NCBI GenBank assembly: GCA_963734995.1
Contig: CAVTJD010000004.1
Coordinates: 23,910-87,909, forward strand
Reading direction: 5' to 3'
Length of the DNA stretch: 64,000 bases
Source of the DNA: an uncultured Chloroflexia bacterium
GTDB taxonomy: Bacteria > Chloroflexota > Limnocylindria > Limnocylindrales > CSP1-4
Part shown: piece after piece, positions 2,624-21,679 of the stretch
How the letters are laid out: the number at the start of each line of letters is the position of its first letter
Numbering within the stretch: position 1 is the first letter of the stretch
Translations under genes and position numbers: made by a program
The notes under the pieces: generated by a model
What the model saw: only the letters and a program-made list of their open reading frames with translations
Databases searched by the model: none
What the model was told of the DNA's origin: nothing

Positions 2624-3898
2624 TCACCGAGCCCCGCGATCGCCTCCGCGTCCGGTGTCGCCGGCAGCAGGATCTCCTCGACGCCCGGGAGCCGGCGACG
2701 GAGCGCCGATGCGAGCGTCGGGCGCACCGACGACGACGTGTCGGCCGGTGTCAGGTCGGCGGGCAGCGACTGGACGACCGCGATCCGCGCGCTCGCGGCG
2801 GGCTTCAAGCGGCAGCAGCCCCTCGTCGTTGCGAACGAGGGTGATCGAACGCCGGGCGAGCTCCGCGGCAAGCGCCTGATGCTCGTCGCAGCCGACGATG
2901 TCGAGTGGCGGCTGATCGCGCTGGCCCACCCATTGCCGCAGCCCGCGCAGCCGGTGCCTCGCCGCTGCGTCATCGCCGGCATCGAACAGGCCTCGCCGCT
3001 GCGCCTGTGCGAGGCCCTCCTCCAGCCGTTCCAGCGCAGATTCGTCGGCCGTGCCCAGCAGCACGTCCTCGCCGGCACGCAGGGCGGCGATCGCATCGAC
3101 GATCTGCGCCGATCCCTGGGCCAGGGCGCGCATGTCCAGGGCATCGGTGATCGTGACGCCGTCGAACCCGAGCTGCCCGCGCAGCAGGTCGCGCAGCACT
3201 GCGGCGGACAGGCTGGTCGGCAGCTCGTCGCGCTGTCCGGCGAGCGCGAAATGGCCCGTCATGACCATCCGCACCCCCGCCCTCAGCGCCGCTCGGAACG
3301 GGACCAGCTCCCGCTCGGCCAGCTGCGTGCTCGTGCGGCGCACCAGGGGCAGCTCGTGATGCGGATCCGCCGCCGTGTCACCCGCGCCCGGAAAGTGCTT
3401 GGCCGTCGCCGCCACGCCCTCGTCCTGCAGGCCGCGGACGGTCGCCGCCGCGAGCCTCCCGACCATCTCGGGATCGTCGCCGAAGCTGCGGATGCCGAGC
3501 GCCGGATTGGCCGGATCGCTGGCCACGTCGCACACTGGCGCGTAGTCCACGTTGACGCCCAGGGCACGCAGCTCGCGCGCCATCGCGCCGGCGACGCGCT
3601 CGGCCAGGGCCTCGTCATCGGTCGCGCCGAGCGCCATCGCACCGGCGAACTGCGTCGTCCGCTCGCCCAGGCCGATCAGCTGGCCGCCCTCCTGGTCGGC
3701 GGCAATCAGCAGCGGCGGCTCGCCGGCCGGCCGCGCCCGCTGGATCGCCGATGTCAGCTCGCGCAGCTGCGGAGGATCGACGAGGTTGTGAGCGGGGAAC
3801 AGCGTCACCCCGGCCACGCCCTGCTCACGGATCCGCCTCGCCGCCGATTCCGGCAGCTCGGTGCCGACGAAGGCGACCATGAGTCGCGCCAGCGTCAT
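2624..3898 (-). CDS. GH3 family hydrolase (NagZ-like beta-N-acetylhexosaminidase/beta-glucosidase), catalytic domain; C-terminal domain appears to continue in another frame (2293..~2720)
   Basis: GH3 motifs AADQEGG, KHFPGAGDTAADPHHELP; ORF tail after ITLVRNDEGLLPL is low-complexity while overlapping ORF 2293..3144 encodes a GH3-like C-terminal domain (LVVVGTLSAHLQPGQAQL...PTVTLALRTPWDLLAYP). Confidence 0.75.
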   Translation of the reverse strand: MTLARLMVAFVGTELPESAARRIREQGVAGVTLFPAHNLVDPPQLRELTSAIQRARPAGEPPLLIAADQEGGQLIGLGERTTQFAGAMALGATDDEALAERVAGAMARELRALGVNVDYAPVCDVASDPANPALGIRSFGDDPEMVGRLAAATVRGLQDEGVAATAKHFPGAGDTAADPHHELPLVRRTSTQLAERELVPFRAALRAGVRMVMTGHFALAGQRDELPTSLSAAVLRDLLRGQLGFDGVTITDALDMRALAQGSAQIVDAIAALRAGEDVLLGTADESALERLEEGLAQAQRRGLFDAGDDAAARHRLRGLRQWVGQRDQPPLDIVGCDEHQALAAELARRSITLVRNDEGLLPLEARRERADRGRPVAARRPDTGRHVVVGAPDARIGAPSPAPGRRGDPAAGDTGRGGDRGAR

Positions 3899-3972
3899 GT
3901 CTTCACCCGCCTGGCGTCATGCCTCCACGGAGCCTGCCATCAACGTCCGCTCCGAGCCCGGCCCGCCTGGCC

Positions 3973-4875
3973 TCACGCCTTCACGGAGCCTGCCAGGATC
4001 CCCCGCACGAATGCTCGCTGGAGCAGCAGGAACACCGCCAAGGGCATGGCCATGGTGACGAACGCGCCGGCCGTCAGGAGCTGCCACTGGCCACCGCGAC
4101 TGCCGAGCAGGGCGTACAGCGCGGTGGGCATCACCCGCAGGTCCGTGGACACGCCCAGGAATGTCAGCGCCACGAGCAGATCGTTCCAGACCCACAGGAA
4201 CTGGAAGATCGCAAAGGCACCCAGCGCCGGGATCGTCAGCGGCAGCACGAGCCGGATGAACATCTGCAGGTGCGATGCCCCGTCGATGGCGGCCGATTCG
4301 AACAGGTCGCGCGGCAGCTGCGAGATGAAGTTGTAGAGCAGGAAGATTGCCAGCGGCAGACCAAAGCCCGTGTGGGCCAGCCAGATCCCGATGAACGTGC
4401 CGTACAGCGATGCGCCGCTGTAGAGCTTGAGGATCGGGATCAGCGACATCTGGATGGGCACCACGAGCAGCCCCACCACGATCGTGAACAGGATGCCGCG
4501 GCCACGGAACGGGATCCACGCGAACGCGTATGCGGCAAACGCCGCGATCGTGATCGGGATCGCGGTCGCCGGGATGGTGACGATCAGGCTGTTGAGGAAC
4601 GCATCCCCCATGCCACCGCTGGCGATGACCTGCTGATAGTTCGCCAGGGTCCACTGGTCGGCTGCGAACGGGTTGAACAGCGATGTCCACCACCCGGAAT
4701 GGCTGACCAGCTCCGGGTTGCGCACCGATGTCACGAGCAGACCGATGGTGGGCAGCGTCCACAGGAAGCAGATCAGGAGGACGGCCAGTCGAACCGGCAG
4801 GCTGCGCAGGAGCTGCGGCCGCCATGCCGAAACACGCGTTCCTTGCCTTGTCGCGGACTGGGCCGACGCGGTCAT
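3973..4875 (-). CDS. carbohydrate ABC transporter permease (MalG-type)
   Basis: 6 TM-like hydrophobic segments; EAA loop ESAAIDGASHLQMFIRLVLPL. Confidence 0.85.
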   Translation of the reverse strand: MTASAQSATRQGTRVSAWRPQLLRSLPVRLAVLLICFLWTLPTIGLLVTSVRNPELVSHSGWWTSLFNPFAADQWTLANYQQVIASGGMGDAFLNSLIVTIPATAIPITIAAFAAYAFAWIPFRGRGILFTIVVGLLVVPIQMSLIPILKLYSGASLYGTFIGIWLAHTGFGLPLAIFLLYNFISQLPRDLFESAAIDGASHLQMFIRLVLPLTIPALGAFAIFQFLWVWNDLLVALTFLGVSTDLRVMPTALYALLGSRGGQWQLLTAGAFVTMAMPLAVFLLLQRAFVRGILAGSVKA

Positions 4876-12989: not shown

Positions 12990-13074
12990 TGGTGGGCCGG
13001 GGCAGAATCGAACTGCCACAGCCGAAGGCGAGGGTTTTACAGACCCTTGGGCTCACCACCTGCCCAACCGACCC
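12990..13074 (-). tRNA. tRNA-Tyr (anticodon GTA), long variable arm
   Basis: Reverse complement folds as GGGTCGG acceptor / D arm / anticodon loop CTGTAAA / long variable arm / GGCAG-TTCGATT-CTGCC T arm / CCA end. Confidence 0.85.
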
Positions 13075-13163: not shown

Positions 13164-13239
<76 letters not shown>

Positions 13240-13366
13240 ACGGGAGCCGCACCCGGCATGCCGGGCTGACCGGGCCGGAAGTGTAGCACGCAGCCGGCCG
13301 GTGGACCGTCCCCCGAGCTCGGCCGACGGCCTCAATTCCGGCCTCCCGGACCAGCTGCCGGTCTCC

Positions 13367-13395
13367 CTTGACGAATAGAACATATGTTCTATTAT
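13367..13395 (+). promoter_or_regulatory. sigma-70-like promoter (TTGACG-17-TATTAT) with embedded LexA (Cheo-type) box TAGAACATATGTTCTA
   Basis: Perfect 16-bp palindrome AGAAC-N4-GTTCT matching Gram-positive LexA consensus CGAACRNRYGTTCG, sited between -35 and -10, immediately upstream of imuA'. Confidence 0.75.
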
Positions 13396-13405
13396 GGGAC
13401 GTCCG

Positions 13406-14635
13406 ATGGCCCGATCATCCGACGTATCCGAAGCGCTCTCGAGGCTCCAGGCACGCTGGGGACCGGCAGCCCTCCGACGGGGCGGAGAGATGGGTCTGGC
13501 GGTCGAAGGCGCCCTCGCTCGAGCACCGATGCCGGCCGAGTCCGCGGCGGACGAGGCGATGGTGCCGGCCACCATGCCGATCACGCCTGTGCGCGTCAGG
13601 CCCGGGCGTCGGACCGAGGAGCCCGATGGCCGGGTCATCTCGACCGGGTTCGCCGCGCTGGATGCCCTGCTCGGGCCGGGCGGGCTTCCGCGTTCGGCCA
13701 CCGTGGCGTTCCGTGGGGGTGCCTCGTCGGGCAAGACCACGGTGGCGTTGCGGGTGGTTGCCGAGGCGCAGGCAACCGGAGCGATCGTCGCCTGGCTGGA
13801 TCTCGCCCGTGCCTTCGATGCGGTGGAGGCGGTCTCCCGTGGCGTCCGCCTGGAGTGGCTCGTCGTGCTCACCCCGGTCGATCTCGAGGAGGGGCTGTCG
13901 CTGGCCGCGGCGTTGCTCGCTGCCCGGACGGTCGACCTGCTGGTCATGGATCTTCCGGATGGACGGGCCACGTCGCTCGCAGGGTCGCGAGTGGGCGATC
14001 GCCCGGCCCGGCTGGCGGCGCTGGCCAGGCGGGCCGGCGCGCTGCTCCTGCTGGTGGAGCCAAGCACCGTGGGTGCCGATCTCGGCGCTGCGCTCCGGGA
14101 GGCGAGCGGGCTGCGACTGGAGCTGACGCAGCTGGGCTGGATCCGGCTCGGCCGGGACGTGGTCGGACGGCGTAGCGCGGTGACGGTGGCCAGAGACAGG
14201 CACGGTCCACCGGGCCGTCGTGCCGAGCTCGAGATCCTGTACGCGGAGGGCGGCGACCGGGATGCGTGCCTGATGCGAGACGAGCTGCTCGATGGCCGGC
14301 CATCGGGCGTCCCGCCGGGGATCGCCGCCATCTCCCCACCGTTCTCCGACCTGAAAGGCCCCCCTCCATCGGCCGATACCCATGCGTCTGCTCCACCTGG
14401 TCTGGCCGCACCTCCCGCTCCGTCTCGCCCGATCCCGTCTCGAGTCCCAGGACGCCAACGGCACCTCCACCTCGTGGCCACCCGGCCCGGTCGTCCTCGG
14501 TGGGCAACCCTGGACGGAGGGGATGGTGGTCGACGCAGATCCGCTCGCCAGGGCGCTCGGTGTGCGTCGCGGGATCCCTCTCGGGGACGCCCACCGGCTC
14601 GCGCCCGAGGCGACCTTCCTCAACCTCGCGCCTGA
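13406..14635 (+). CDS. imuA: ImuA' (RecA-fold/SulA-like mutasome component)
   Basis: RecA-like P-loop region FRGGASSGKTTVALRVVAEAQATGAIVAWLDLARAFD; LexA-box promoter; followed by imuB. Start set at the second ATG (13406), which gives a near-leaderless transcript; the first ATG (13394) overlaps the -10 hexamer. Confidence 0.7.
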   Translation: MARSSDVSEALSRLQARWGPAALRRGGEMGLAVEGALARAPMPAESAADEAMVPATMPITPVRVRPGRRTEEPDGRVISTGFAALDALLGPGGLPRSATVAFRGGASSGKTTVALRVVAEAQATGAIVAWLDLARAFDAVEAVSRGVRLEWLVVLTPVDLEEGLSLAAALLAARTVDLLVMDLPDGRATSLAGSRVGDRPARLAALARRAGALLLLVEPSTVGADLGAALREASGLRLELTQLGWIRLGRDVVGRRSAVTVARDRHGPPGRRAELEILYAEGGDRDACLMRDELLDGRPSGVPPGIAAISPPFSDLKGPPPSADTHASAPPGLAAPPAPSRPIPSRVPGRQRHLHLVATRPGRPRWATLDGGDGGRRRSARQGARCASRDPSRGRPPARARGDLPQPRA

Positions 14636-15674
14636 CGCGGATCGGGACGCCGTCGAAGCCGCCTGCGAGCGGCTGGTTGCGTTCAGCCCGGGGATCGTCG
14701 GGACGAGTGATGTCAGCGACCCGAGCTACGGGCGGATCGGGGTTCAGATCGATGGGCTGACCCGCCTGTGGGGAGTCGAGGAGACGCTCGTTGCCAGGAT
14801 GGCCGAGGCGCTGGCACCGATCCTGCCCGGCCCACCCCGGGCGGGGATCGCCGGGACCGGCTTCGCCGCGAGCGTGGCCGCTGCCCATGCGCGCGAGGGG
14901 GACCGGCCGATCCTCGTACCACCCGGTGATGACGGTCGCTACCTCGCTCCGTTCCCGGCCCGTCTCCTGACCCGGGATCCAGACGTTCGGGCCAGGCTCG
15001 CCAGGTTCGGGCTGCGGACGATCGGCTCGGTGGCGGCCCTGCCTCGGTCCGCCCTGGTCGCGCGTTTCGGCGACGAAGGTGCCCGGCTGCATGCGCGTGC
15101 CACGGGCGAGGAGACCGAGCGGTTCCGGCCCCGTCGTGCCGCCGAGCGGATGGCGCTCGCCCTGCCCCTCGAGCCACCGGTAGCAGGCCTCGAGGCGGTG
15201 CGGTTCGTGCTTCGCCGGCTCGCGGCGACGCTTTCGGATCAGCTGCGAGCTCGAGGTCGGGCGGCGGCAATGGCCCGACTCGTCGTCACCTGTGACCTCG
15301 CTTTCGCGCGTGCCGGGACGCCGGCCGAGGTTCGCGTCGAGCATCGTCTCCCGGAGGCGACGGCGGATGCCGAGGCCATCGAGCGTCTGCTGTTTGCCAG
15401 GCTGGAGCGGACACCACCGCCGGCGCCGGTCACACGCCTGGAGCTGGAGCTCGGCATGGTCGAGCCGGCATCAGGGCAACAGCTGTCGCTGTTCACGCCA
15501 CAGGCGGCACGAGGCGCCCGGCTGGGCTGGCAGCTCGCCCGCCTGGCGATCGTATTCGGGGCTGACCGGGTGCATCGGGTGGAGCTGGCCGATCCCGAGG
15601 CCATCGTCACCGAGGCTCGTTGGCGCTGGGTGCCGGTCTCGGGTGCGGTGGCCGGGGAGGAAGACCAGGCATGA
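14382..15674 (+). CDS. imuB: ImuB (catalytically inactive Y-family polymerase-like mutasome scaffold)
   Basis: N-terminus MRLLHLVWPHLPL and VVDADPLARALGVRRGIPLGDAHRLAPEATFL match DinB/ImuB family; lacks obvious catalytic acidic triad context; downstream of imuA'. Confidence 0.75.
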   Translation: MRLLHLVWPHLPLRLARSRLESQDANGTSTSWPPGPVVLGGQPWTEGMVVDADPLARALGVRRGIPLGDAHRLAPEATFLNLAPDADRDAVEAACERLVAFSPGIVGTSDVSDPSYGRIGVQIDGLTRLWGVEETLVARMAEALAPILPGPPRAGIAGTGFAASVAAAHAREGDRPILVPPGDDGRYLAPFPARLLTRDPDVRARLARFGLRTIGSVAALPRSALVARFGDEGARLHARATGEETERFRPRRAAERMALALPLEPPVAGLEAVRFVLRRLAATLSDQLRARGRAAAMARLVVTCDLAFARAGTPAEVRVEHRLPEATADAEAIERLLFARLERTPPPAPVTRLELELGMVEPASGQQLSLFTPQAARGARLGWQLARLAIVFGADRVHRVELADPEAIVTEARWRWVPVSGAVAGEEDQA

Positions 15675-15919
15675 CGCGGTTCCTGCGTGAGCATCCGGCG
15701 ATCGAACCCGAGCTGGATGACCGTGGCCGGCTGATCGCGATCCGCTGGAATGGCCGCCGTGAGCCGGTCGAGGTGTGCAACCGCTGGCGGGTCGATGAGT
15801 CCTGGTGGCGGCAGCCGATCGCGCGCGACTACTTCAAGGTCGTGGGCCAGAGCTGGCTCGCGCTCGTGTATCTGGATCGGGTGGCCGGGACATGGCACCT
15901 GGAGCGGTTCTACGACTGA
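15671..15919 (+). CDS. small Trp-rich hypothetical protein translationally coupled to imuB
   Basis: ATGA overlap with imuB stop; 82 aa, 6 Trp (IRWNGRR, NRWRVDESWWRQ, GTWHLERFYD); no known motif recognised. Confidence 0.5.
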   Translation: MTRFLREHPAIEPELDDRGRLIAIRWNGRREPVEVCNRWRVDESWWRQPIARDYFKVVGQSWLALVYLDRVAGTWHLERFYD

Positions 15920-16074
15920 GCGGCGGCCGCGCACGGATCCGCTTGTCGGGCGAACCTCGCGGGGATCCGGCATGTCCAGCCGCGATCGATGGCGGCGACC
16001 GGTCGGATGTCTGGCGGCACCTGGCGCAGGCGACGCTCAGCCTTGGCTGAGCCGGAGCGAACCTCGATCACCCG

Positions 16075-16182
16075 TCAACGCGTGACAGGTTGGCCGAGCG
16101 CGATCGACGTGACGAGCAGGACCAGGAACAGGCCCACCAACAGGAACAGTGCGTCCAGGTCACGAGGCCGAGTCGTCTGCAT
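16075..16182 (-). CDS. small single-TM hydrophobic peptide (35 aa)
   Basis: MQTTRPRDLDALFLLVGLFLVLLVTSIALGQPVTR; paralogous to peptide at 16355..16453. Confidence 0.35.
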   Translation of the reverse strand: MQTTRPRDLDALFLLVGLFLVLLVTSIALGQPVTR

Positions 16183-16354
16183 CGCCGGTGCGTCCCCCAT
16201 CTCCATGACCGGTCCCGGCCGGTCGCCGGCAGCATAGACGTCCAAGCCGGATCCTGTGTTGCGCTCGCGTCAACATCCCGTTGCGTGGCCGCAGCGCCGT
16301 CACACCCGATGTCATCGGGGCAGGTTTCGCGGCGAAGCCGGCGCGAGGCGGACG

Positions 16355-16453
16355 TCAGCCCGGAAGAGCGGCCACCACGAGCAGGACGAGGAGCACGAGC
16401 AGGGCGGCGACCAGCAGGCCAGCCCCGATCACGTCGCGCCGCGTCAATTCCAT
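16355..16453 (-). CDS. small single-TM hydrophobic peptide (32 aa)
   Basis: MELTRRDVIGAGLLVAALLVLLVLLVVAALPG; shares M-x-(T)-TR-(P)RD-[LV] N-terminus and Leu/Val TM core with 16075..16182. Confidence 0.35.
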   Translation of the reverse strand: MELTRRDVIGAGLLVAALLVLLVLLVVAALPG

Positions 16454-16474
16454 CGTCTGAGATCTCCTTGGTCG

Positions 16475-17068
16475 CTAGCCGCCGGCTCCGGCGCAACCGG
16501 CACCGTACAGCACCGTGATCATCGTCGATTCGCCCATCGGGCGGAAGGTCAGCTGGATCCGGCATTCGGGAACATCGCTTTGCGTATCCAGCACCCGGCT
16601 GCCGTCCTCGAGCGGATCCGAGAGGTCGACCGAGCTGTATCCCGCCGCCTCGAGTGCATCCCGGTACCAGGCCGCGACATCATCCACCGATTGCGAGGTC
16701 AGCAACGCATCGCTGACCGGTTCGGCCGGCGGCTCGGCGGGCTCTGCGCCCGGAAGCCGTGGGAAGCTGTCGGGGACCGCATCGAGGATTGCGCCCCAGT
16801 CCGTCTGCGTGACGGGGATACGTGTGGCGGGTGGTCCAGGTGCCGTCGATACGCCCCCGGGCACGGCCGTCGGCTCGGGAGCCAAGCTGCGGGCGTCGGA
16901 CGGGGTCACCGATGGGCCTGCCGCGGTGGTCGGGATCGGCCGCGCCGTGGTGGCATCGGAGCCACAGGCGCCAACCGTGATCGCGAGTGCTGCCGCGAGC
17001 ACCACGACCGAGAGGGACCGGGGAGATCGCCAGCAGATCGATCGCAGAACTCGTGTCACGCTCGCCAT
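16475..17068 (-). CDS. hypothetical secreted lipoprotein (Pro/Thr/Ala-rich)
   Basis: Signal peptide + lipobox MASVTRVLRS...VVVLAAALAITVGACGS; C-terminal globular segment DWGAILDAVPDSF...YRDALEAAGY. Confidence 0.5.
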   Translation of the reverse strand: MASVTRVLRSICWRSPRSLSVVVLAAALAITVGACGSDATTARPIPTTAAGPSVTPSDARSLAPEPTAVPGGVSTAPGPPATRIPVTQTDWGAILDAVPDSFPRLPGAEPAEPPAEPVSDALLTSQSVDDVAAWYRDALEAAGYSSVDLSDPLEDGSRVLDTQSDVPECRIQLTFRPMGESTMITVLYGAGCAGAGG

Positions 17069-17215
17069 CGTAACCGGCGCCGGATGGAGCACGGTGAACG
17101 GCTCTCGTGTCCCCGGCCTGCCCAGGGTCCGGGAAAGGTCGACGGGCGCCATCGCAACGCCGTCGCCATCAGGTCCGCCCCGGCGACGTCCACGTCGGCC
17201 GGAACGGTGGTGTCG

Positions 17216-17353
17216 TCACACAGCGGCTTCGACCATCGCCGGCAGCAGGACCAGGACCAGGCCCATGACGAGCGCGATGGCGACCACCCGCAGCAGGAGA
17301 TCGACGAGGATGCGGCGCGAGGGTCGTCGGACCGGGTCGGCAATCACGCGCAT
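17216..17353 (-). CDS. small single-TM hydrophobic peptide (45 aa)
   Basis: MRVIADPVRRPSRRILVDLLLRVVAIALVMGLVLVLLPAMVEAAV; third member of the small-peptide set; divergent from dnaE2. Confidence 0.3.
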   Translation of the reverse strand: MRVIADPVRRPSRRILVDLLLRVVAIALVMGLVLVLLPAMVEAAV

Positions 17354-17424
17354 TCAGACGCATGGGCGACGGGTTTGGTTGCGTGCCGCGGCGGCGATTT
17401 CGACCAGTGGCCGGCGTTCCGAAT

Positions 17425-17438
17425 CGAACGGATGTTCT
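17425..17438 (+). promoter_or_regulatory. LexA (Cheo-type) box CGAACGGATGTTCT upstream of dnaE2
   Basis: Matches CGAACRNRYGTTYC exactly; lies between TTCCGA (-35-like) and TACACT (-10-like); same half-sites as imuA' box. Confidence 0.7.
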
Positions 17439-17470
17439 ACACTCGGTGTCACCGTTCGGAGAGACCGATC

Positions 17471-20400
17471 GTGGCCGGACCCGCCTACGCCGAGCTGCAC
17501 TGCCACAGCCACTTCTCGTTCCTGGATGGAGCGTCGTCGCCGGCTGATCTCGTGGCTCGGGCAGCGGAGCTGGGTCTGAGCGGGCTGGCGATCACCGATC
17601 ACCAGGGCCTGTACGGAGCGGTGCGGTTCTCGATGGCGGCCGACGCCGCGGGCATCCGACCTGTGATCGGGATCGAGATCGAGCTCCAGGATCCGGTCGT
17701 GCCGGATGCTGCCGGCATCGTGATCCCGGCGCGCCGAGCGTGGCGACCCGGACGGCGGGTCTCCGTGGAGGCCGCCGGATCGCGGGCCATCGACGGGCGC
17801 CCGGATCGGCCCCGTCCCGAGCGTGCGCGACTTCCCGGTCATCGTGCGGTGGTCAAGGAGGACCAGCGCGGGGTGGGCGAGACAGGGCGTGACCCGCATC
17901 TGGTGCTGCTGGCCCGTGACGCAACCGGCTGGCGGAGCCTGTGCCGCCTCGTGTCGCGGGCGAACCTGGCCGGCACGAAGGGCGTCCCTCGGTTCACCCA
18001 GGCGCTGCTTGCCGAGCACACGGAGGGGCTGATCGCGCTGTCGGGCTGCCGGCACGGGGAGCTGGCGCGCCGGCTCCGAGCCGGCGACCGATCCGGGGCC
18101 AGGGCCGCCGCCGAGCGGTACGCGCGACTGTTCGCTGATGGATCGGGTGCGGGTGGCGACACGGCTGCCCGGTGCGGCTTCTTCGTGGAGCTCTCGCACC
18201 ACCTGCTCCCGGACGACGACTGGCTGGTGTCGGAGGCGGCCCGTCTCGCCGACGAGCTGGGCCTGCCGGTCGTGGTGACCAACGACGCCCACTACGCGCT
18301 GCCGGCGGACCGTGAGCTCCAGGACGTGCTGACCGCCATCCGTCACGGGCGAGCGGTGGAGCAGCTGCGAGACCTCCGCCGACCCGACGGTGAGTCGTAC
18401 CTCAAGTCCGGCGCCGAGCTGCTGGCGATGCCGCCCGGGGAGCCCGCAACGGCAGCCGTGGATTCGGTCGCTGCCCGGGCCTGGCGCGAAGGCGTCGCCG
18501 CCTCGGTCGAGATCGCAGCCGCCTGCCGGGTGGATCTCGTGTTCGAGCGCTACCGGTTCCCCGGGTTCGAGGTGCCGGCCGGCGAGACGCCGTTCAGCCA
18601 TCTGTCCGAGCTGTGCTGGGAAGGGGCTCGCCGTCGCTATCACCCGCTGACGCCGGCCGTGGTGCGGCAGCTCGCTCACGAGCTGGACGTGATCGAGAAG
18701 ACCGGCCTTGCCGAGTTCTTTCTGATCTGCTGGGACCTGATGCGGTTCGCGAGGTCGCGCGGGATCCCGGCCCAGGGACGCGGCAGCGCTGCGGACTCGA
18801 TCGTGGCCTACGTGCTGGGGATCACGCGGGTCGACCCCATCCGGCACGAGCTGCTGTTCGAGCGGTTCATCAACGAGGGCCGGACCGCATACCCGGACGT
18901 GGACATCGACTTCAGCTCCGCGCGGCGGGAGGAGGTGATCCAGTACGTCTACCAGCGCTACGGCACCGAGCACACGGGGATGGTCTGCAACCTCGTCACG
19001 TACCGGGCACGGTCGGCGGTGCGCGAGGTGGGCTACGCGCTCGGGTTCCCGCGACCGCTGGTCGACCGCGTCGCCAAGGCGCTCGAGACGTACGACTCGG
19101 TGATGGTCCGCCGGGACCTCGAGGCCGAAGGCGGCTTCGCCCAGTTCTTCGCACGACCGGGCGAGGCACCGGGCGATGGCGTGGCAGGCGGGGAGCGGCG
19201 ACTGGCCGCCGAGACGACCGTGACCGGTGCGGCATCGCTGGCCGGTGCCCGTGGTCTGACCGATGCGATGGGCCAGCTCAACCACGAGCGTGGCGGGCAC
19301 TACCGGGGCGGTGAACGCCAGGAGGCTCCGCCCGTCGCCGGTACTCGGTCTGCCGACCGTACTCCGCCCGCCGCCGGAACACGGCCCGCTGATCGTGCCG
19401 GGCATCGGGCCCGCGCCTGGGCACCGAGCGAGGATGAGGGCGGCCCCGGCGATTCCCCGGTGAGCGAACGCTGGATCCGCGAGGGGCCACCAACGCGGAC
19501 GCTCGAACGACGGCGGGACGCCCGCGCCGCCATGGACCGCGAGGTCGCCCACCGGCTGGATCCCGAGAGCGGCGTGTTGCTGCCAGCTGACCGCCGGTTC
19601 GATGCGCGTCCGGCGGGGTACAGCAGCGTGGCGCGCGTGGAGCCGCTCCCCGCACCGGACCGCAGCCGTCATCGAGGCTCGGTGGCCCATCTTTCGGACT
19701 GGGAACGCTGGCTCGAGCTGTGCGCCCGGATCGACGGCTTCCCGCGCCATCTCTCCATCCACTCCGGCGGGATGCTCGTCACCGCCGCCCCGCTCATCGA
19801 CATCGTTCCCATCGAGCGCGCGACGATGAAGGACCGTGTCGTCGTTCAGTACGACAAGCGCGACGTCGAGACGATGAAGCTGATCAAGCTCGACCTGCTC
19901 GGTCTGGGCATGCTGGCCGCCATCGACGAGACGCTCCGGCTCATCGAGCACGACTGCGCGACGTGTGTCGATCTCGACCGGATCCCCGAGGAGATCCCCG
20001 AGGTGTTCGAGATGCTCCAGGCCGCCGACACGGTCGGCGTGTTCCAGGTCGAAAGCCGGGCCCAGATGCAGACGTTGCCCAAGTCGAGGCCCCGCAACCT
20101 CGACGACCTCGTGGTGGAGGTGGCGATCATCAGGCCCGGGCCGATCCAGGGCAACGCCGTCCATCCCTACCTGCGGCGCAAGCAGGGCCTCGAGCCCGTG
20201 AGCTATCTCCATCCCAGCCTCGAGCCGATCCTCCACGACAGCCTGGGCGTGATCCTGTACCAGGAGCAGGTGATGAAGATCGCGATCGACGTCGCGGGCT
20301 TCACGCCGGCGGGCTCTGACGCGTTCCGGCGCGCGATGGGCACCTGGCGCTCCACGCACGAGATGGAGAAGCTTCACGCCCAGTTCGTCGAGGGCTGCGT

Positions 20401-21679
20401 CCGCGTCCAGGACATGGCGCGCGACGATGCCGAGGAGCTGTTTCGCCAGTGCGCGGCGTTCGCCAGCTTCGGCTTCGCGAAGAGTCACGCCGCCGCGTTC
20501 GCCCGGACGGCGTACGAGTCGAGCTTCCTCAAGCTGTTCTATCCGGCCCAGTTCGTGATCGGGCTGATCAACGCTCAGCCGATGGGCTTCTACCCGGTCG
20601 AGGTGCTGGTCAACGACGCGAAGCGTCACGGCGTGGCCGTGCTTCCGGTGGACATCAGCCGGAGCTCCTGGCGAACCACCACCGAGTGGGTCGGGCGACC
20701 GGGCTGGGCGCTGGCCGGGGCAGCAGGCGATGCGGGGTTGCGCGACGGTGACGAGGGCGAGCCGCTGCCCGAGGGGTGTGGGATCGAGGACCGGCCGGCG
20801 CCGGTGCGCTCGAGCGCGTGCGTGCTCCCCAGGACCGCCGCCCGGGAGCGCTGGGCGGCGGAGGGCGTGACCGGCTGGGGCGTCAGGCTGGGTCTGCACC
20901 TGGTCAAGGGGATCGGCGAGGAGCGACAGGCGAGGCTCGATACGGAGCTGGCGCGCGGGCCGTACACGTCGCTGGCCGATGTGGTGGAGCGAACGGGCCT
21001 GCCGGAGGAGGTCGTCGAGCGATTGGTCCGGGCGGGGGCGCTGGATTCGCTGGGGCGGCCGAGAAGGGAGCTGCTGTGGCAGCTGCGTGAGGTCGCGGGG
21101 GCGACGAAGGGACGCCTGGACGGGCGGACCGTGCGTGGGGCCGGGGCCGCCGCTCGCCGTGCGGCGGGGCGCCCGATGGACCTGCGCCTGCCGGCCACCG
21201 AGGCCCCGCCACTCCCCGGGGTCACGGAGTCGGAACGGCTGGGCGATGCCTACGCGGTGATGGGGCTCGATGCACGCCGGCAGGCCGTTGGCCTGTTCCG
21301 CGGCGCGCTCGATCGGCTGGGAGCGGTGACCAACGCGGCACTGTCGGATCGGCAACCCGGGTCGGTTCGGATCGGCGGGCTGGTCGTGACGAGGCAGCAT
21401 CCGATGACGGCGCGGGGCACGGTGTTTCTGGCGCTCGAGGACGAGACCGGGATGGTCAACGTCACCCTGTGGCCGGACGCCTGGCAGCGGCTCCGATCAG
21501 TGGTTCGGCGTCACGCTCTGTTGCTGGTTGACGGGGATCTTCAGCGGGAGGCGAACGTGATCAATGTCGTGGCGCGCTCGGTGACCCCGTTGATCGAGGC
21601 GGCCGGGACAGCCGGCGGACCCACCTCGCCCGTCGGCGTGAAGGCGATCGGACAGGCCGGGTTGCGGCGGCTCGGCTAG
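17471..21679 (+). CDS. dnaE2: error-prone DNA polymerase DnaE2 (ImuC) with large low-complexity insertions
   Basis: PHP domain YAELHCHSHFSFLDGAS...ITDHQGLYG; polymerase core FPRHLSIHSGGMLVT, QVESRAQM; GTG start preceded by GGAGAG; the upstream ATG at 17432 lies inside the LexA box. Confidence 0.8.
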   Translation: MAGPAYAELHCHSHFSFLDGASSPADLVARAAELGLSGLAITDHQGLYGAVRFSMAADAAGIRPVIGIEIELQDPVVPDAAGIVIPARRAWRPGRRVSVEAAGSRAIDGRPDRPRPERARLPGHRAVVKEDQRGVGETGRDPHLVLLARDATGWRSLCRLVSRANLAGTKGVPRFTQALLAEHTEGLIALSGCRHGELARRLRAGDRSGARAAAERYARLFADGSGAGGDTAARCGFFVELSHHLLPDDDWLVSEAARLADELGLPVVVTNDAHYALPADRELQDVLTAIRHGRAVEQLRDLRRPDGESYLKSGAELLAMPPGEPATAAVDSVAARAWREGVAASVEIAAACRVDLVFERYRFPGFEVPAGETPFSHLSELCWEGARRRYHPLTPAVVRQLAHELDVIEKTGLAEFFLICWDLMRFARSRGIPAQGRGSAADSIVAYVLGITRVDPIRHELLFERFINEGRTAYPDVDIDFSSARREEVIQYVYQRYGTEHTGMVCNLVTYRARSAVREVGYALGFPRPLVDRVAKALETYDSVMVRRDLEAEGGFAQFFARPGEAPGDGVAGGERRLAAETTVTGAASLAGARGLTDAMGQLNHERGGHYRGGERQEAPPVAGTRSADRTPPAAGTRPADRAGHRARAWAPSEDEGGPGDSPVSERWIREGPPTRTLERRRDARAAMDREVAHRLDPESGVLLPADRRFDARPAGYSSVARVEPLPAPDRSRHRGSVAHLSDWERWLELCARIDGFPRHLSIHSGGMLVTAAPLIDIVPIERATMKDRVVVQYDKRDVETMKLIKLDLLGLGMLAAIDETLRLIEHDCATCVDLDRIPEEIPEVFEMLQAADTVGVFQVESRAQMQTLPKSRPRNLDDLVVEVAIIRPGPIQGNAVHPYLRRKQGLEPVSYLHPSLEPILHDSLGVILYQEQVMKIAIDVAGFTPAGSDAFRRAMGTWRSTHEMEKLHAQFVEGCVRVQDMARDDAEELFRQCAAFASFGFAKSHAAAFARTAYESSFLKLFYPAQFVIGLINAQPMGFYPVEVLVNDAKRHGVAVLPVDISRSSWRTTTEWVGRPGWALAGAAGDAGLRDGDEGEPLPEGCGIEDRPAPVRSSACVLPRTAARERWAAEGVTGWGVRLGLHLVKGIGEERQARLDTELARGPYTSLADVVERTGLPEEVVERLVRAGALDSLGRPRRELLWQLREVAGATKGRLDGRTVRGAGAAARRAAGRPMDLRLPATEAPPLPGVTESERLGDAYAVMGLDARRQAVGLFRGALDRLGAVTNAALSDRQPGSVRIGGLVVTRQHPMTARGTVFLALEDETGMVNVTLWPDAWQRLRSVVRRHALLLVDGDLQREANVINVVARSVTPLIEAAGTAGGPTSPVGVKAIGQAGLRRLG

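Follow-up and report, generated by a model that had tools for sequence, protein, structure and literature searches.

A probable stand-alone ImuB C-terminal domain gene beside a truncated imuB in an SOS mutagenesis cassette of Chloroflexota (Ca. Limnocylindria-like)

Genes and LexA boxes of the cassette

The window (the whole 64-kb stretch of DNA analysed here, 64,000 nucleotides) carries imuA-like, imuB, a short ORF designated here imuB-C, and dnaE2 (Table 1). The operon opens with imuA-like, whose 3′ end overlaps the downstream imuB by 254 nt. The imuA-like product aligns to RecA residues ~36-268, retaining the Walker A motif (GGASSGKT) but missing the RecA C-terminal domain, and scores 102 bits with the TIGR02012 recA model (cut-off 325) and 28.5 bits with NF033429 (ImuA_translesion; cut-off 150). 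When the imuB product is aligned to E. coli DinB and to canonical ImuBs, substitutions fall at the DinB D8, D103 and E104 positions, and a β-clamp motif (QLSLF) and a RecA-NT-like stretch are found near the C-terminus; the combination of a dead Y-family polymerase with a clamp motif is that of canonical ImuB. However, canonical ImuBs run ~100 aa further in the alignment, and the local protein stops just past the clamp-binding and RecA-NT-like motifs, at the point where canonical ImuB enters the ImuB-C domain. Close homologues of this ImuB, for which JGI uses the name ‘protein ImuB’, are likewise ~430 aa, and a DUF6504/ImuB-C domain was found in 0 of the 120 closest.

The dnaE2 product matches NCBIfam NF004225 (‘error-prone DNA polymerase’) with 1062.9 bits (cut-off 939). 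dnaE2, also syntenic in related loci, lies outside the imuB-C operon, 1.5 kb downstream and past minus-strand ORFs, with a LexA box of its own. GAAC-N4-GTTC occurs twice in the window, against 0.49 occurrences expected. A LexA box is present ~28 nt 5′ of the imuA-like start in 59/59 related loci, and at or just 5′ of the dnaE2 start in 68/68. With both units (imuA-like/imuB/imuB-C and dnaE2) carrying conserved LexA boxes, the cassette appears, at the sequence level, to be under SOS/LexA control.

Table 1 Coordinates of cassette genes and associated signals in the window.
Feature	Position	Strand	Description
Promoter-like element	13368..13395	+	TTGACG-16 nt-TATTAT; sole sigma-70-like match in 13250-17500
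LexA (SOS) box	13378-13389	+	GAACATATGTTC; inside promoter spacer
imuA-like	13406..14635	+	RecA-core paralogue; Pfam RecA, E 7.5e-27; syntenic in related loci
imuB core	14382..15674	+	Catalytically inactive Y-family polymerase, 430 aa; Pfam IMS and IMS_C
Shine-Dalgarno-like GGAGG	15656..15660	+	Within imuB 3′ end, 10 nt 5′ of imuB-C ATG
imuB-C	15671..15919	+	Probable stand-alone ImuB C-terminal domain protein, 82 aa, 10.1 kDa; divergent DUF6504 member
Second LexA box	17426..17437	+	GAACGGATGTTC; overlaps dnaE2 start codon at 17432
dnaE2	17432..21679	+	Error-prone C-family DNA polymerase, catalytic partner of the cassette; PHP domain at N-terminus

Coding status and conservation of imuB-C

The ATG of imuB-C (15671-15673) overlaps the TGA of the 430-aa imuB ORF (15672-15674) to give a shared ATGA, and the ORF ends in TGA (15917-15919). 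Its product contains 13 Arg and 6 Trp residues and has a pI of ~8. Coordinates, overlap and unusual composition are all as given in the initial annotation, which had also named codon usage and a ribosome-binding site as checks. An ORF of this length could arise by chance in DNA of 70.7% G+C, where a 9-kb stretch contains 64 ORFs of ≥50 aa. Both checks bear the ORF out, with G+C contents of 0.69/0.46/0.86 at codon positions 1/2/3 and the upstream GGAGG (Table 1). A Shine-Dalgarno-like core precedes the gene in 53 of 80 orthologous loci, and a start codon is present in all 80 (ATG 53, GTG 27). The 4-nt A/GTGA overlap with imuB is seen in 70/79 loci, and in the remaining nine the two genes are 13-107 nt apart or otherwise spaced. 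Two other ORFs in this region were rejected: a TTG-extended version of 99 aa (15620..15919), as homologues are 82 aa and begin M/V-T-R, and an antisense ORF of 244 aa (15239..15973), the G+C pattern of which is unlike that of coding sequence.

Close protein homologues of imuB-C number 447, mostly of exactly 82 aa. In 80 loci fetched from 446 species genomes of Chloroflexota (Ca. Limnocylindria), identity to imuB-C is 78-89%; these loci were collected with an alignment of close homologues, and all 80 therefore come from one lineage. The order imuA-like, imuB, imuB-C, dnaE2 is maintained across them. Conservation directly downstream of imuB, expected in the initial annotation, is thus found, although in Chloroflexota rather than in the Actinobacteria assumed there, and the conserved neighbourhood and LexA boxes bear out its suggestion that the ORF belongs functionally with ImuB and DnaE2. 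By median identity, ImuB-C is the most conserved product of the cassette (82%, vs 75% for ImuB, 75% for DnaE2 and 61% for ImuA-like). Beyond this lineage, a 39%-identical homologue (P0184) is encoded in a contiguous RecA-like/IMS/ImuB-C/DnaE operon, again with a 4-nt overlap, and the contiguous form of the cassette was found in other lineages (L087, L092).

Differences between imuB-C and 79 orthologues are distributed 820/446/2480 over codon positions 1/2/3. They correspond to 1145 non-synonymous and 1864 synonymous codon changes, while the two other frames give synonymous/non-synonymous counts of 291/2758 and 103/2903; internal stops are absent from all 79. This pattern points to strong purifying selection on imuB-C. 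Taken together, the 82-codon ORF is, on sequence grounds, a real gene, predicted to be translationally coupled to imuB.

Indels do occur in metagenome-assembled genomes (MAGs), and one locus with imuB and imuB-C in a single frame (L012), as well as a 704-aa RecA+IMS product (P0304), look like such errors. The local split might by the same token be a sequencing frameshift, or the relic of a pseudogenised imuB with a tail left open by chance. This reading is effectively refuted: the identical split with its 4-nt overlap recurs in those 70/79 loci from independent species-level genomes and, in a different lineage, in the 39%-identical homologue, purifying selection on the tail is strong, and 120/120 of the closest ImuB homologues are without the domain. 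L012 itself was set aside as a natural fusion; it is a probable frameshift in a long-read MAG, since its linker reads as out-of-frame sequence.

A −1 ribosomal frameshift near the ATGA, joining imuB and imuB-C into full-length canonical ImuB instead of or besides free ImuB-C, is very unlikely. The frame relationship is appropriate (imuB-C lies in frame −1 with respect to imuB), the overlap is conserved, fused forms exist in other lineages and the L012 ORFs read as a single frame. However, the junction (GAC CAG GCA TGA) is without a slippery heptamer, the first imuB-C codon is always a start codon, the varied spacings in nine loci would not be tolerated by a fixed recoding site, and the L012 linker resembles frame-shifted sequence. 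Fusion of ImuB-C to the Y-family module, as in canonical ImuB, is not what is found here: imuB has its own stop (15672-15674) and imuB-C a separate start in 80/80 loci.

Relationship of imuB-C to the ImuB-C domain (DUF6504)

A Pfam scan of the 82-aa protein gave no match even at E≤1, so that the gathering score of DUF6504 (PF20114) is not reached, and nothing in NCBIfam matched; DUF6504 membership of this protein is consequently transitive and by profile comparison only. The connecting evidence comes from a profile of its close homologues, which finds 508 representatives at 50% clustering, most of them 82-86 aa. With HMMER, this profile matches the extreme C-terminus of two IMS+IMS_C proteins (P0229, 501 aa; P0262, 538 aa) and the C-terminus of a RecA-like protein (P0245). 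DUF6504 is matched by 37/61 family members (E≤0.01); P0148, for example, has an E value of 1.1e-18 with the ORF profile and 30.6 bits with DUF6504 (cut-off 24.2). DUF6504 also matches the C-termini of P0229 and P0262, below threshold, and residues 428-498 of 503 of Agrobacterium ImuB, weakly (17.7 bits, below the 24.2 cut-off). In profile comparisons with hhalign, the family aligns to residues 410-502 of 503 of Agrobacterium ImuB (probability 92%, E 5.9e-7) and to residues 448-499 of 499 of Ca. Manganitrophus ImuB (probability 97%, E 2.6e-10); the alignment to Burkholderia ImuB is weak (probability 9%). Canonical cassettes used for comparison were reached via DnaE2, and tblastn of the ORF itself against plasmids found nothing; a Microbacterium plasmid imuB (L082) was left out as fragmented.

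Among 61 diverse family members, W39, R40, W45, W46, R52, W75 and R79 are invariant or ≥90% conserved, with W75 invariant and R40, R52 and R79 at ≥90%. These conserved Trp and basic residues, with no catalytic-type motif, are as described for the ImuB-C superfamily, and the Trp/Arg richness of imuB-C appears to be largely a family signature. The superfamily pattern extends to a β domain of ~80 residues and an SOS/translesion polymerase neighbourhood (80 loci). The AF2 model of the 82-aa protein has eight strands and no helix (all-β; mean pLDDT 89). The family profile matched no PDB sequence at E≤10 and a Foldseek search of the model against the PDB returned nothing significant (best E 0.9); an all-β model with no PDB neighbour agrees with the published description of ImuB-C as a ‘beta-barrel, novel fold’ (PMC12926913).

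The ORF thus very probably encodes a stand-alone ImuB-C domain, with ImuB split in two in this Chloroflexota (Ca. Limnocylindria-like) genome. The initial annotation had instead suggested a previously unrecognised mutasome accessory factor. A factor unrelated to any described family might seem to be indicated by the lack of direct Pfam or NCBIfam matches and of PDB sequence or fold matches, and by the label ‘hypothetical protein’ on all named public copies of the gene. Nevertheless, HMMER and hhalign relate the ORF both to members of DUF6504 and to the C-terminal ends of ImuBs of the canonical and fused kinds, and absence of a PDB match is a published property of ImuB-C itself (PMC12926913); an unrelated factor is refuted by these homology results. 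The ImuB-C domain was named by Aravind et al. in 2013 (PMC3765255), and the stand-alone form is already known, having been analysed as a separate subunit by Timinskas and Venclovas in 2019 (PMC6511836), by Blanchard and de Groot in 2021 (PMC8072749) and in a 2026 NAR survey (PMC12926913). The 82-aa product is present in public gene calls, while no exact match to the proteins of the window was found in the contig index; the Limnocylindria subfamily is ‘hypothetical protein’ in public annotation because the DUF6504 model does not detect it (E≤1).

Predicted role and comparison with known mutasomes

Published work on fused ImuB suggests how the split version may operate. The 4-nt stop/start overlap would allow termination-reinitiation coupling, with roughly equimolar output of both ImuB halves expected after SOS induction. 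The RecA-NT motif of the ImuB core would be held by the ImuA-like protein, and DnaE2 would thereby be tethered to clamp-bound ImuB for error-prone lesion bypass. imuB-C is likely, by analogy, to be an adaptor tethering DnaE2 and ImuA to clamp-bound ImuB. An adaptor is the present view of the ImuB-C domain: AlphaFold models set it on the PHP domain of DnaE2, contributing to ImuA binding (PMC12926913), and in mycobacteria both DnaE2 and ImuA′ bind the C-terminal part of ImuB (work cited in PMC6511836).

Aravind et al. (2013) put forward a different role, in which ImuB-C mainly binds DNA, senses damage in it and directs polymerases to lesions, rather than serving as a protein-protein adaptor for DnaE2 and ImuA. 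The conserved R40, R52, R79, W39, W45, W46 and W75 and a pI of ~8 are compatible with nucleic-acid contacts, and stand-alone ImuB-C genes are also found beside Ku/ligase, photolyase and DinB genes without DnaE2 (PMC3765255). We nevertheless consider a mainly DNA-sensing role rather improbable, given the DnaE2 and ImuA′ binding of the mycobacterial region, the modelled position of ImuB-C on the PHP domain, and the natural RecA-like::ImuB-C fusion (P0245), which points to a protein partner. DNA-sensor and adaptor roles of ImuB-C are not mutually exclusive.

A gene annotated as ‘hypothetical protein’ in hundreds of Chloroflexota genomes can now be called imuB-C, and the surrounding genes interpreted as a complete cassette for SOS mutagenesis. 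A natural split ImuB accompanied by an ImuA-like protein offers a handle for telling apart what the ImuB core does (binding of clamp and ImuA) and what ImuB-C does (binding of DnaE2 and ImuA) in the mutasome, which is of interest as a driver of drug-resistance mutations in mycobacteria. It also adds a data point to the question of whether a Y-family polymerase and a free ImuB-C were fused to give rise to ImuB. Current understanding is not overturned by the split ImuB.

Among other mutasomes, UmuD′ of Pol V and YolD/YqjX of YqjW-type systems are, like imuB-C, small β-rich accessory subunits beside a RecA-binding Y-family polymerase, with an analogous regulatory or adaptor role. However, these have SH3-like cores while ImuB-C is reported to form a distinct barrel (PMC12926913), no sequence or fold relationship is seen and imuB-C has no sign of autoproteolysis.

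The Deinococcus-type cassettes (imuY-imuB-C-dnaE2 / DnaE2X) are similar in that an inactive Y-family polymerase carrying clamp and RecA-NT motifs is directly followed by a separate ~80-aa ImuB-C gene, and in having LexA control and a DnaE2 partner, and ‘split ImuB’ is already a term in the literature. They differ from the cassette described here, where the polymerase gene follows a RecA paralogue (ImuA-like) encoded in the cassette, dnaE2 is not directly downstream but forms a separate LexA-box unit 1.5 kb away, past opposite-strand genes, and lexA is outside the operon. In published surveys, stand-alone ImuB-C appears only in systems or genomes without imuA, with RecA assumed to substitute, so that the occurrence of an ImuA-like RecA paralogue beside a split ImuB is mildly new. 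Ca. Limnocylindria, represented by MAGs only, gave no mention in a text search of two surveys of stand-alone ImuB-C, both based on complete genomes. More tentatively, and with some doubt on our part, the Limnocylindria-type cassette (an ImuA-like RecA paralogue with Walker A, an ImuB truncated at its C-terminus, ImuB-C as a free protein, and DnaE2 under separate LexA control) could represent an uncatalogued mutasome architecture, intermediate in evolution between ‘iPolY + ImuB-C + RecA + DnaE2X’ systems and fused ImuABC, in which ImuB-C would act as a dissociable adaptor that needs ImuA in order to attach to ImuB. A contiguous-operon version of this cassette is present in at least one other lineage (L092).

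Canonical ImuA-ImuB-DnaE2 (ImuABC) systems, such as ImuA′-ImuB/DnaE2 of M. tuberculosis and the plasmid cassettes of Agrobacterium and Burkholderia, are built from four functional modules that have counterparts here: ImuA, probably represented by the ImuA-like RecA paralogue; the dead Y-family core carrying the clamp and RecA-NT motifs; ImuB-C; and DnaE2, the error-prone partner. The imuA/imuB overlap and, at the sequence level, SOS regulation are shared, as is the separation of imuAB and dnaE2 into two units, seen in mycobacteria. The local ImuA-like protein differs from canonical ImuA in keeping Walker A and scoring nearer to the RecA than to the ImuA HMM, features reminiscent of the ‘ImuA3’ type that has been described in Myxococcus.

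A small gene overlapping the end of imuB

The ORF following imuB (imuB-C) starts with an ATG that shares bases with the imuB TGA (15672-15674) and encodes a protein containing 6 Trp and 13 Arg; position, length (82 codons), overlap and composition are exactly as described in the initial annotation. As the window has a G+C content of 70.7%, with 64 open frames of ≥50 aa within 9 kb, and open frames of this size are thus common, the ORF by itself proves nothing. It is nevertheless a gene. G+C at codon positions 1/2/3 (0.69/0.46/0.86) is coding-like, GGAGG lies 10 nt upstream of the ATG, and 447 close homologues, almost all exactly 82 aa, were found in the protein collection. Comparison with 79 orthologous loci gave 820/446/2480 differences at codon positions 1/2/3 and 1864 synonymous vs 1145 non-synonymous codon changes, against 291/2758 and 103/2903 in the two other frames. 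The initial annotation would have discarded the ORF had conservation and codon-usage or ribosome-binding-site support been lacking; it stands because conservation, the codon-position pattern and GGAGG are all present.

The closest genomic matches are all Chloroflexota metagenome-assembled genomes (MAGs), mostly labelled Candidatus Limnocylindria or Limnocylindrales, rather than Actinobacteria as had been assumed, with close relatives present in 446 species-representative genomes. Gene order in the 80 loci retrieved (imuA-like, imuB, small ORF, [minus-strand genes], dnaE2) is retained as far as each contig extends, and imuB-C has the highest median identity in the cassette (82%, vs 75% for both ImuB and DnaE2 and 61% for ImuA-like). 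A 4-nt A/GTGA overlap joins imuB and imuB-C in 70/79 loci, and an SD-like core before imuB-C is frequent. Joining of the two frames into a fusion product by -1 frameshifting is unlikely, since the junction has no slippery site, a start codon for imuB-C is present in every locus (80/80; ATG 53, GTG 27) and the spacing differs in nine loci. The 120 closest ImuB homologues are ~430 aa and none contains DUF6504 (the Pfam family of the ImuB C-terminal domain, ImuB-C), so the split is the normal state in this lineage; recurrence among loci and selection on imuB-C exclude an assembly artefact or pseudogene. In one locus (L012, 6594-8249) imuB and imuB-C form a single 551-aa frame, likely an indel artefact of a long-read MAG, as the linker reads out of frame. 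P0304 (704 aa), a close ImuB homologue combining RecA-like and IMS domains in one product, looks like another such artefact.

Features of the cassette and flanking regions
Feature	Coordinates	Strand	Remarks
tRNA-Tyr(GTA)	12990-13074	-	
tRNA-Ala(CGC)	13164-13239	-	
Promoter-like TTGACG-16 nt-TATTAT	13368-13395	+	sole sigma-70-like match in 13250-17500
imuA-like	13406..14635	+	RecA-core paralogue; Pfam RecA, E 7.5e-27; Walker A GGASSGKT
imuB	14382..15674	+	430 codons; Y-family polymerase domains IMS and IMS_C; TGA at 15672-15674
imuB-C	15671..15919	+	82 codons; ATG at 15671, stop 15917-15919
Small hydrophobic/membrane ORFs	16075-16182 and 16355-16453	-	e.g. MQTTRPRDLDALFLLVGLFLVLLVTSIALGQPVTR
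Lipoprotein-like ORF	16475-17152	-	signal peptide then ...ITVGAC; 59/80 loci, median identity 49%
Second LexA motif	17426-17437		over dnaE2 start codon
dnaE2	17432..21679	+	NF004225 'error-prone DNA polymerase', 1062.9 bits (cut-off 939)

Identity of the product as a stand-alone ImuB-C

A profile built from close homologues and searched against 1.84 billion representative proteins recovered 508 relatives, most of them stand-alone and 82-86 aa long. In P0229 (501 aa) and P0262 (538 aa) the match lies at the extreme C-terminus of IMS + IMS_C proteins, and P0245 (371 aa) has it C-terminal to a RecA-like core. DUF6504 was matched at E≤0.01 by 37 of 61 diverse family members, including the distant P0148 (30.6 bits, cut-off 24.2), while the model misses the Limnocylindria subfamily that includes the window protein. 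When ImuBs from annotated canonical imuA-imuB-dnaE2 cassettes on plasmids were compared with the family by hhalign, it aligned to residues 410-502 of 503 in Agrobacterium ImuB (probability 92%, E 5.9e-7) and 448-499 of 499 in Ca. Manganitrophus ImuB (97%, E 2.6e-10), with only a weak match to Burkholderia ImuB. The imuB-C N-terminus (RFLREHPAIEPE) pairs with RLLARPELIEAI of Agrobacterium ImuB, and the two local ORFs are therefore collinear with canonical ImuB.

Aravind et al. 2013 (PMC3765255) predicted ImuB-C to be all-beta and to conserve a C-terminal Trp as well as basic residues, which W75 and R40/R52/R79 fit. The AlphaFold2 model has eight beta-strands and no helix (mean pLDDT 89); a Foldseek search of this model against the PDB returned nothing significant. 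imuB-C is a new member, so far unannotated, of the known ImuB-C/DUF6504 family. Its exact 82-aa product is already among public gene calls (NCBI/ENA), all named members of the surrounding 90% cluster being "hypothetical protein", and the annotation gap spans hundreds of Chloroflexota genomes.

Alignment with E. coli DinB and with these canonical cassette ImuBs indicated that the catalytic Asp/Asp/Glu positions are substituted in the local ImuB, which carries a QLSLF clamp motif followed by a RecA-NT-like stretch (LGWQLARLAIVFGADRV) and ends ~25 residues later, where canonical/fused ImuBs run on into the imuB-C-homologous region.

Cassette organisation and possible function

A perfect Gram-positive type LexA box (GAACATATGTTC) fills the spacer of the promoter-like element upstream of imuA-like, and the only further copy in the 64-kb window is at the dnaE2 start; the boxes are conserved upstream of imuA-like in 59/59 loci and at dnaE2 in 68/68. 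The -10 element ends 10 nt upstream of the imuA-like ATG, so the operon mRNA would be leaderless or nearly so. The two tRNA genes lie directly upstream of this promoter. The imuA-like product covers RecA residues ~36-268 and scores below cut-off with TIGR02012 (102 vs 325 bits) and ImuA_translesion (28.5 vs 150 bits). Its ORF overlaps imuB out of frame by 254 nt (14382-14635; 113-278 nt in 62/64 related loci, median ~252), compared with annotated overlaps of ~80 nt in canonical Agrobacterium and Burkholderia cassettes, and the ImuA tail encoded here is Pro/Arg-rich. The 1.5-kb gap between imuB-C and dnaE2 holds the minus-strand ORFs, none with a Pfam match, which divide the cassette into two LexA-box units. 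Relative to NF004225 (two matched stretches), DnaE2 has a ~170-aa low-complexity Ala/Arg/Gly/Pro-rich insertion (residues ~570-745; window ~19140-19665), a region that is variable, as tblastn matches in relatives are also interrupted there.

On DNA damage, LexA cleavage would de-repress both dnaE2 and the imuA-like/imuB/imuB-C transcript, and ribosomes ending imuB may reinitiate at the overlapping ATG, giving matched amounts of the two ImuB halves. The ImuA-like protein would bind the ImuB core at its RecA-NT motif, and QLSLF would fix the assembly to the beta clamp; in this way polymerase-dead ImuB would bring DnaE2 to a stalled primer terminus. The free ImuB-C barrel could attach to the core directly, through ImuA, or through a second DnaE2 contact on the ImuB thumb; an ImuA/ImuB-C contact would fit with P0245, the naturally occurring RecA-like::ImuB-C fusion. 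ImuB-C may also be a DNA-lesion sensor (Aravind 2013), which is compatible with an adaptor role.

Relation to described split ImuB systems

The ImuB-C superfamily was described as ImuB-fused and also as stand-alone proteins encoded beside DinB, UmuC, DnaE2 or other repair genes (PMC3765255). Operons combining an inactive Y-family polymerase with stand-alone ImuB-C and DnaE2 were reported by Timinskas and Venclovas 2019 (PMC6511836), who saw in ImuB-C the foremost candidate for binding DnaE2. A 2026 NAR survey (PMC12926913) termed the iPolY + ImuB-C pair 'split ImuB'; in its models ImuB-C is a beta-barrel with a novel fold that sits on the DnaE2 PHP domain and helps bind ImuA. The initial annotation was thus right to tie this real, well-conserved gene to the mutasome, and its adaptor idea agrees with current thinking, in which ImuB-C is a candidate for DnaE2 and ImuA binding; the factor is not, however, "unrecognised", the domain being published in all three papers.

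L089, the locus of P0245 (6001-7116), has a beta-clamp (DnaN) gene (3161-4300) 1.7 kb upstream and many HTH regulators in the surrounding region. The RecA-like core fused to ImuB-C, which has no Y-family polymerase in its vicinity, is possibly another ImuB-C architecture.

In both surveys stand-alone ImuB-C systems lack imuA, with RecA the presumed substitute, whereas the LexA-box-preceded operon here opens with a RecA paralogue, and the combination of ImuA-like protein with split ImuB was not found in the main text of either. In another lineage, P0184 (39% identical to imuB-C; locus L092) belongs to a contiguous operon encoding RecA-like (233 aa), IMS (383 aa), ImuB-C (84 aa) and DnaE proteins, with the same 4-nt overlap at the IMS/ImuB-C junction. 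The window cassette is a modest architectural variant of the described split ImuB systems rather than a new kind of system.
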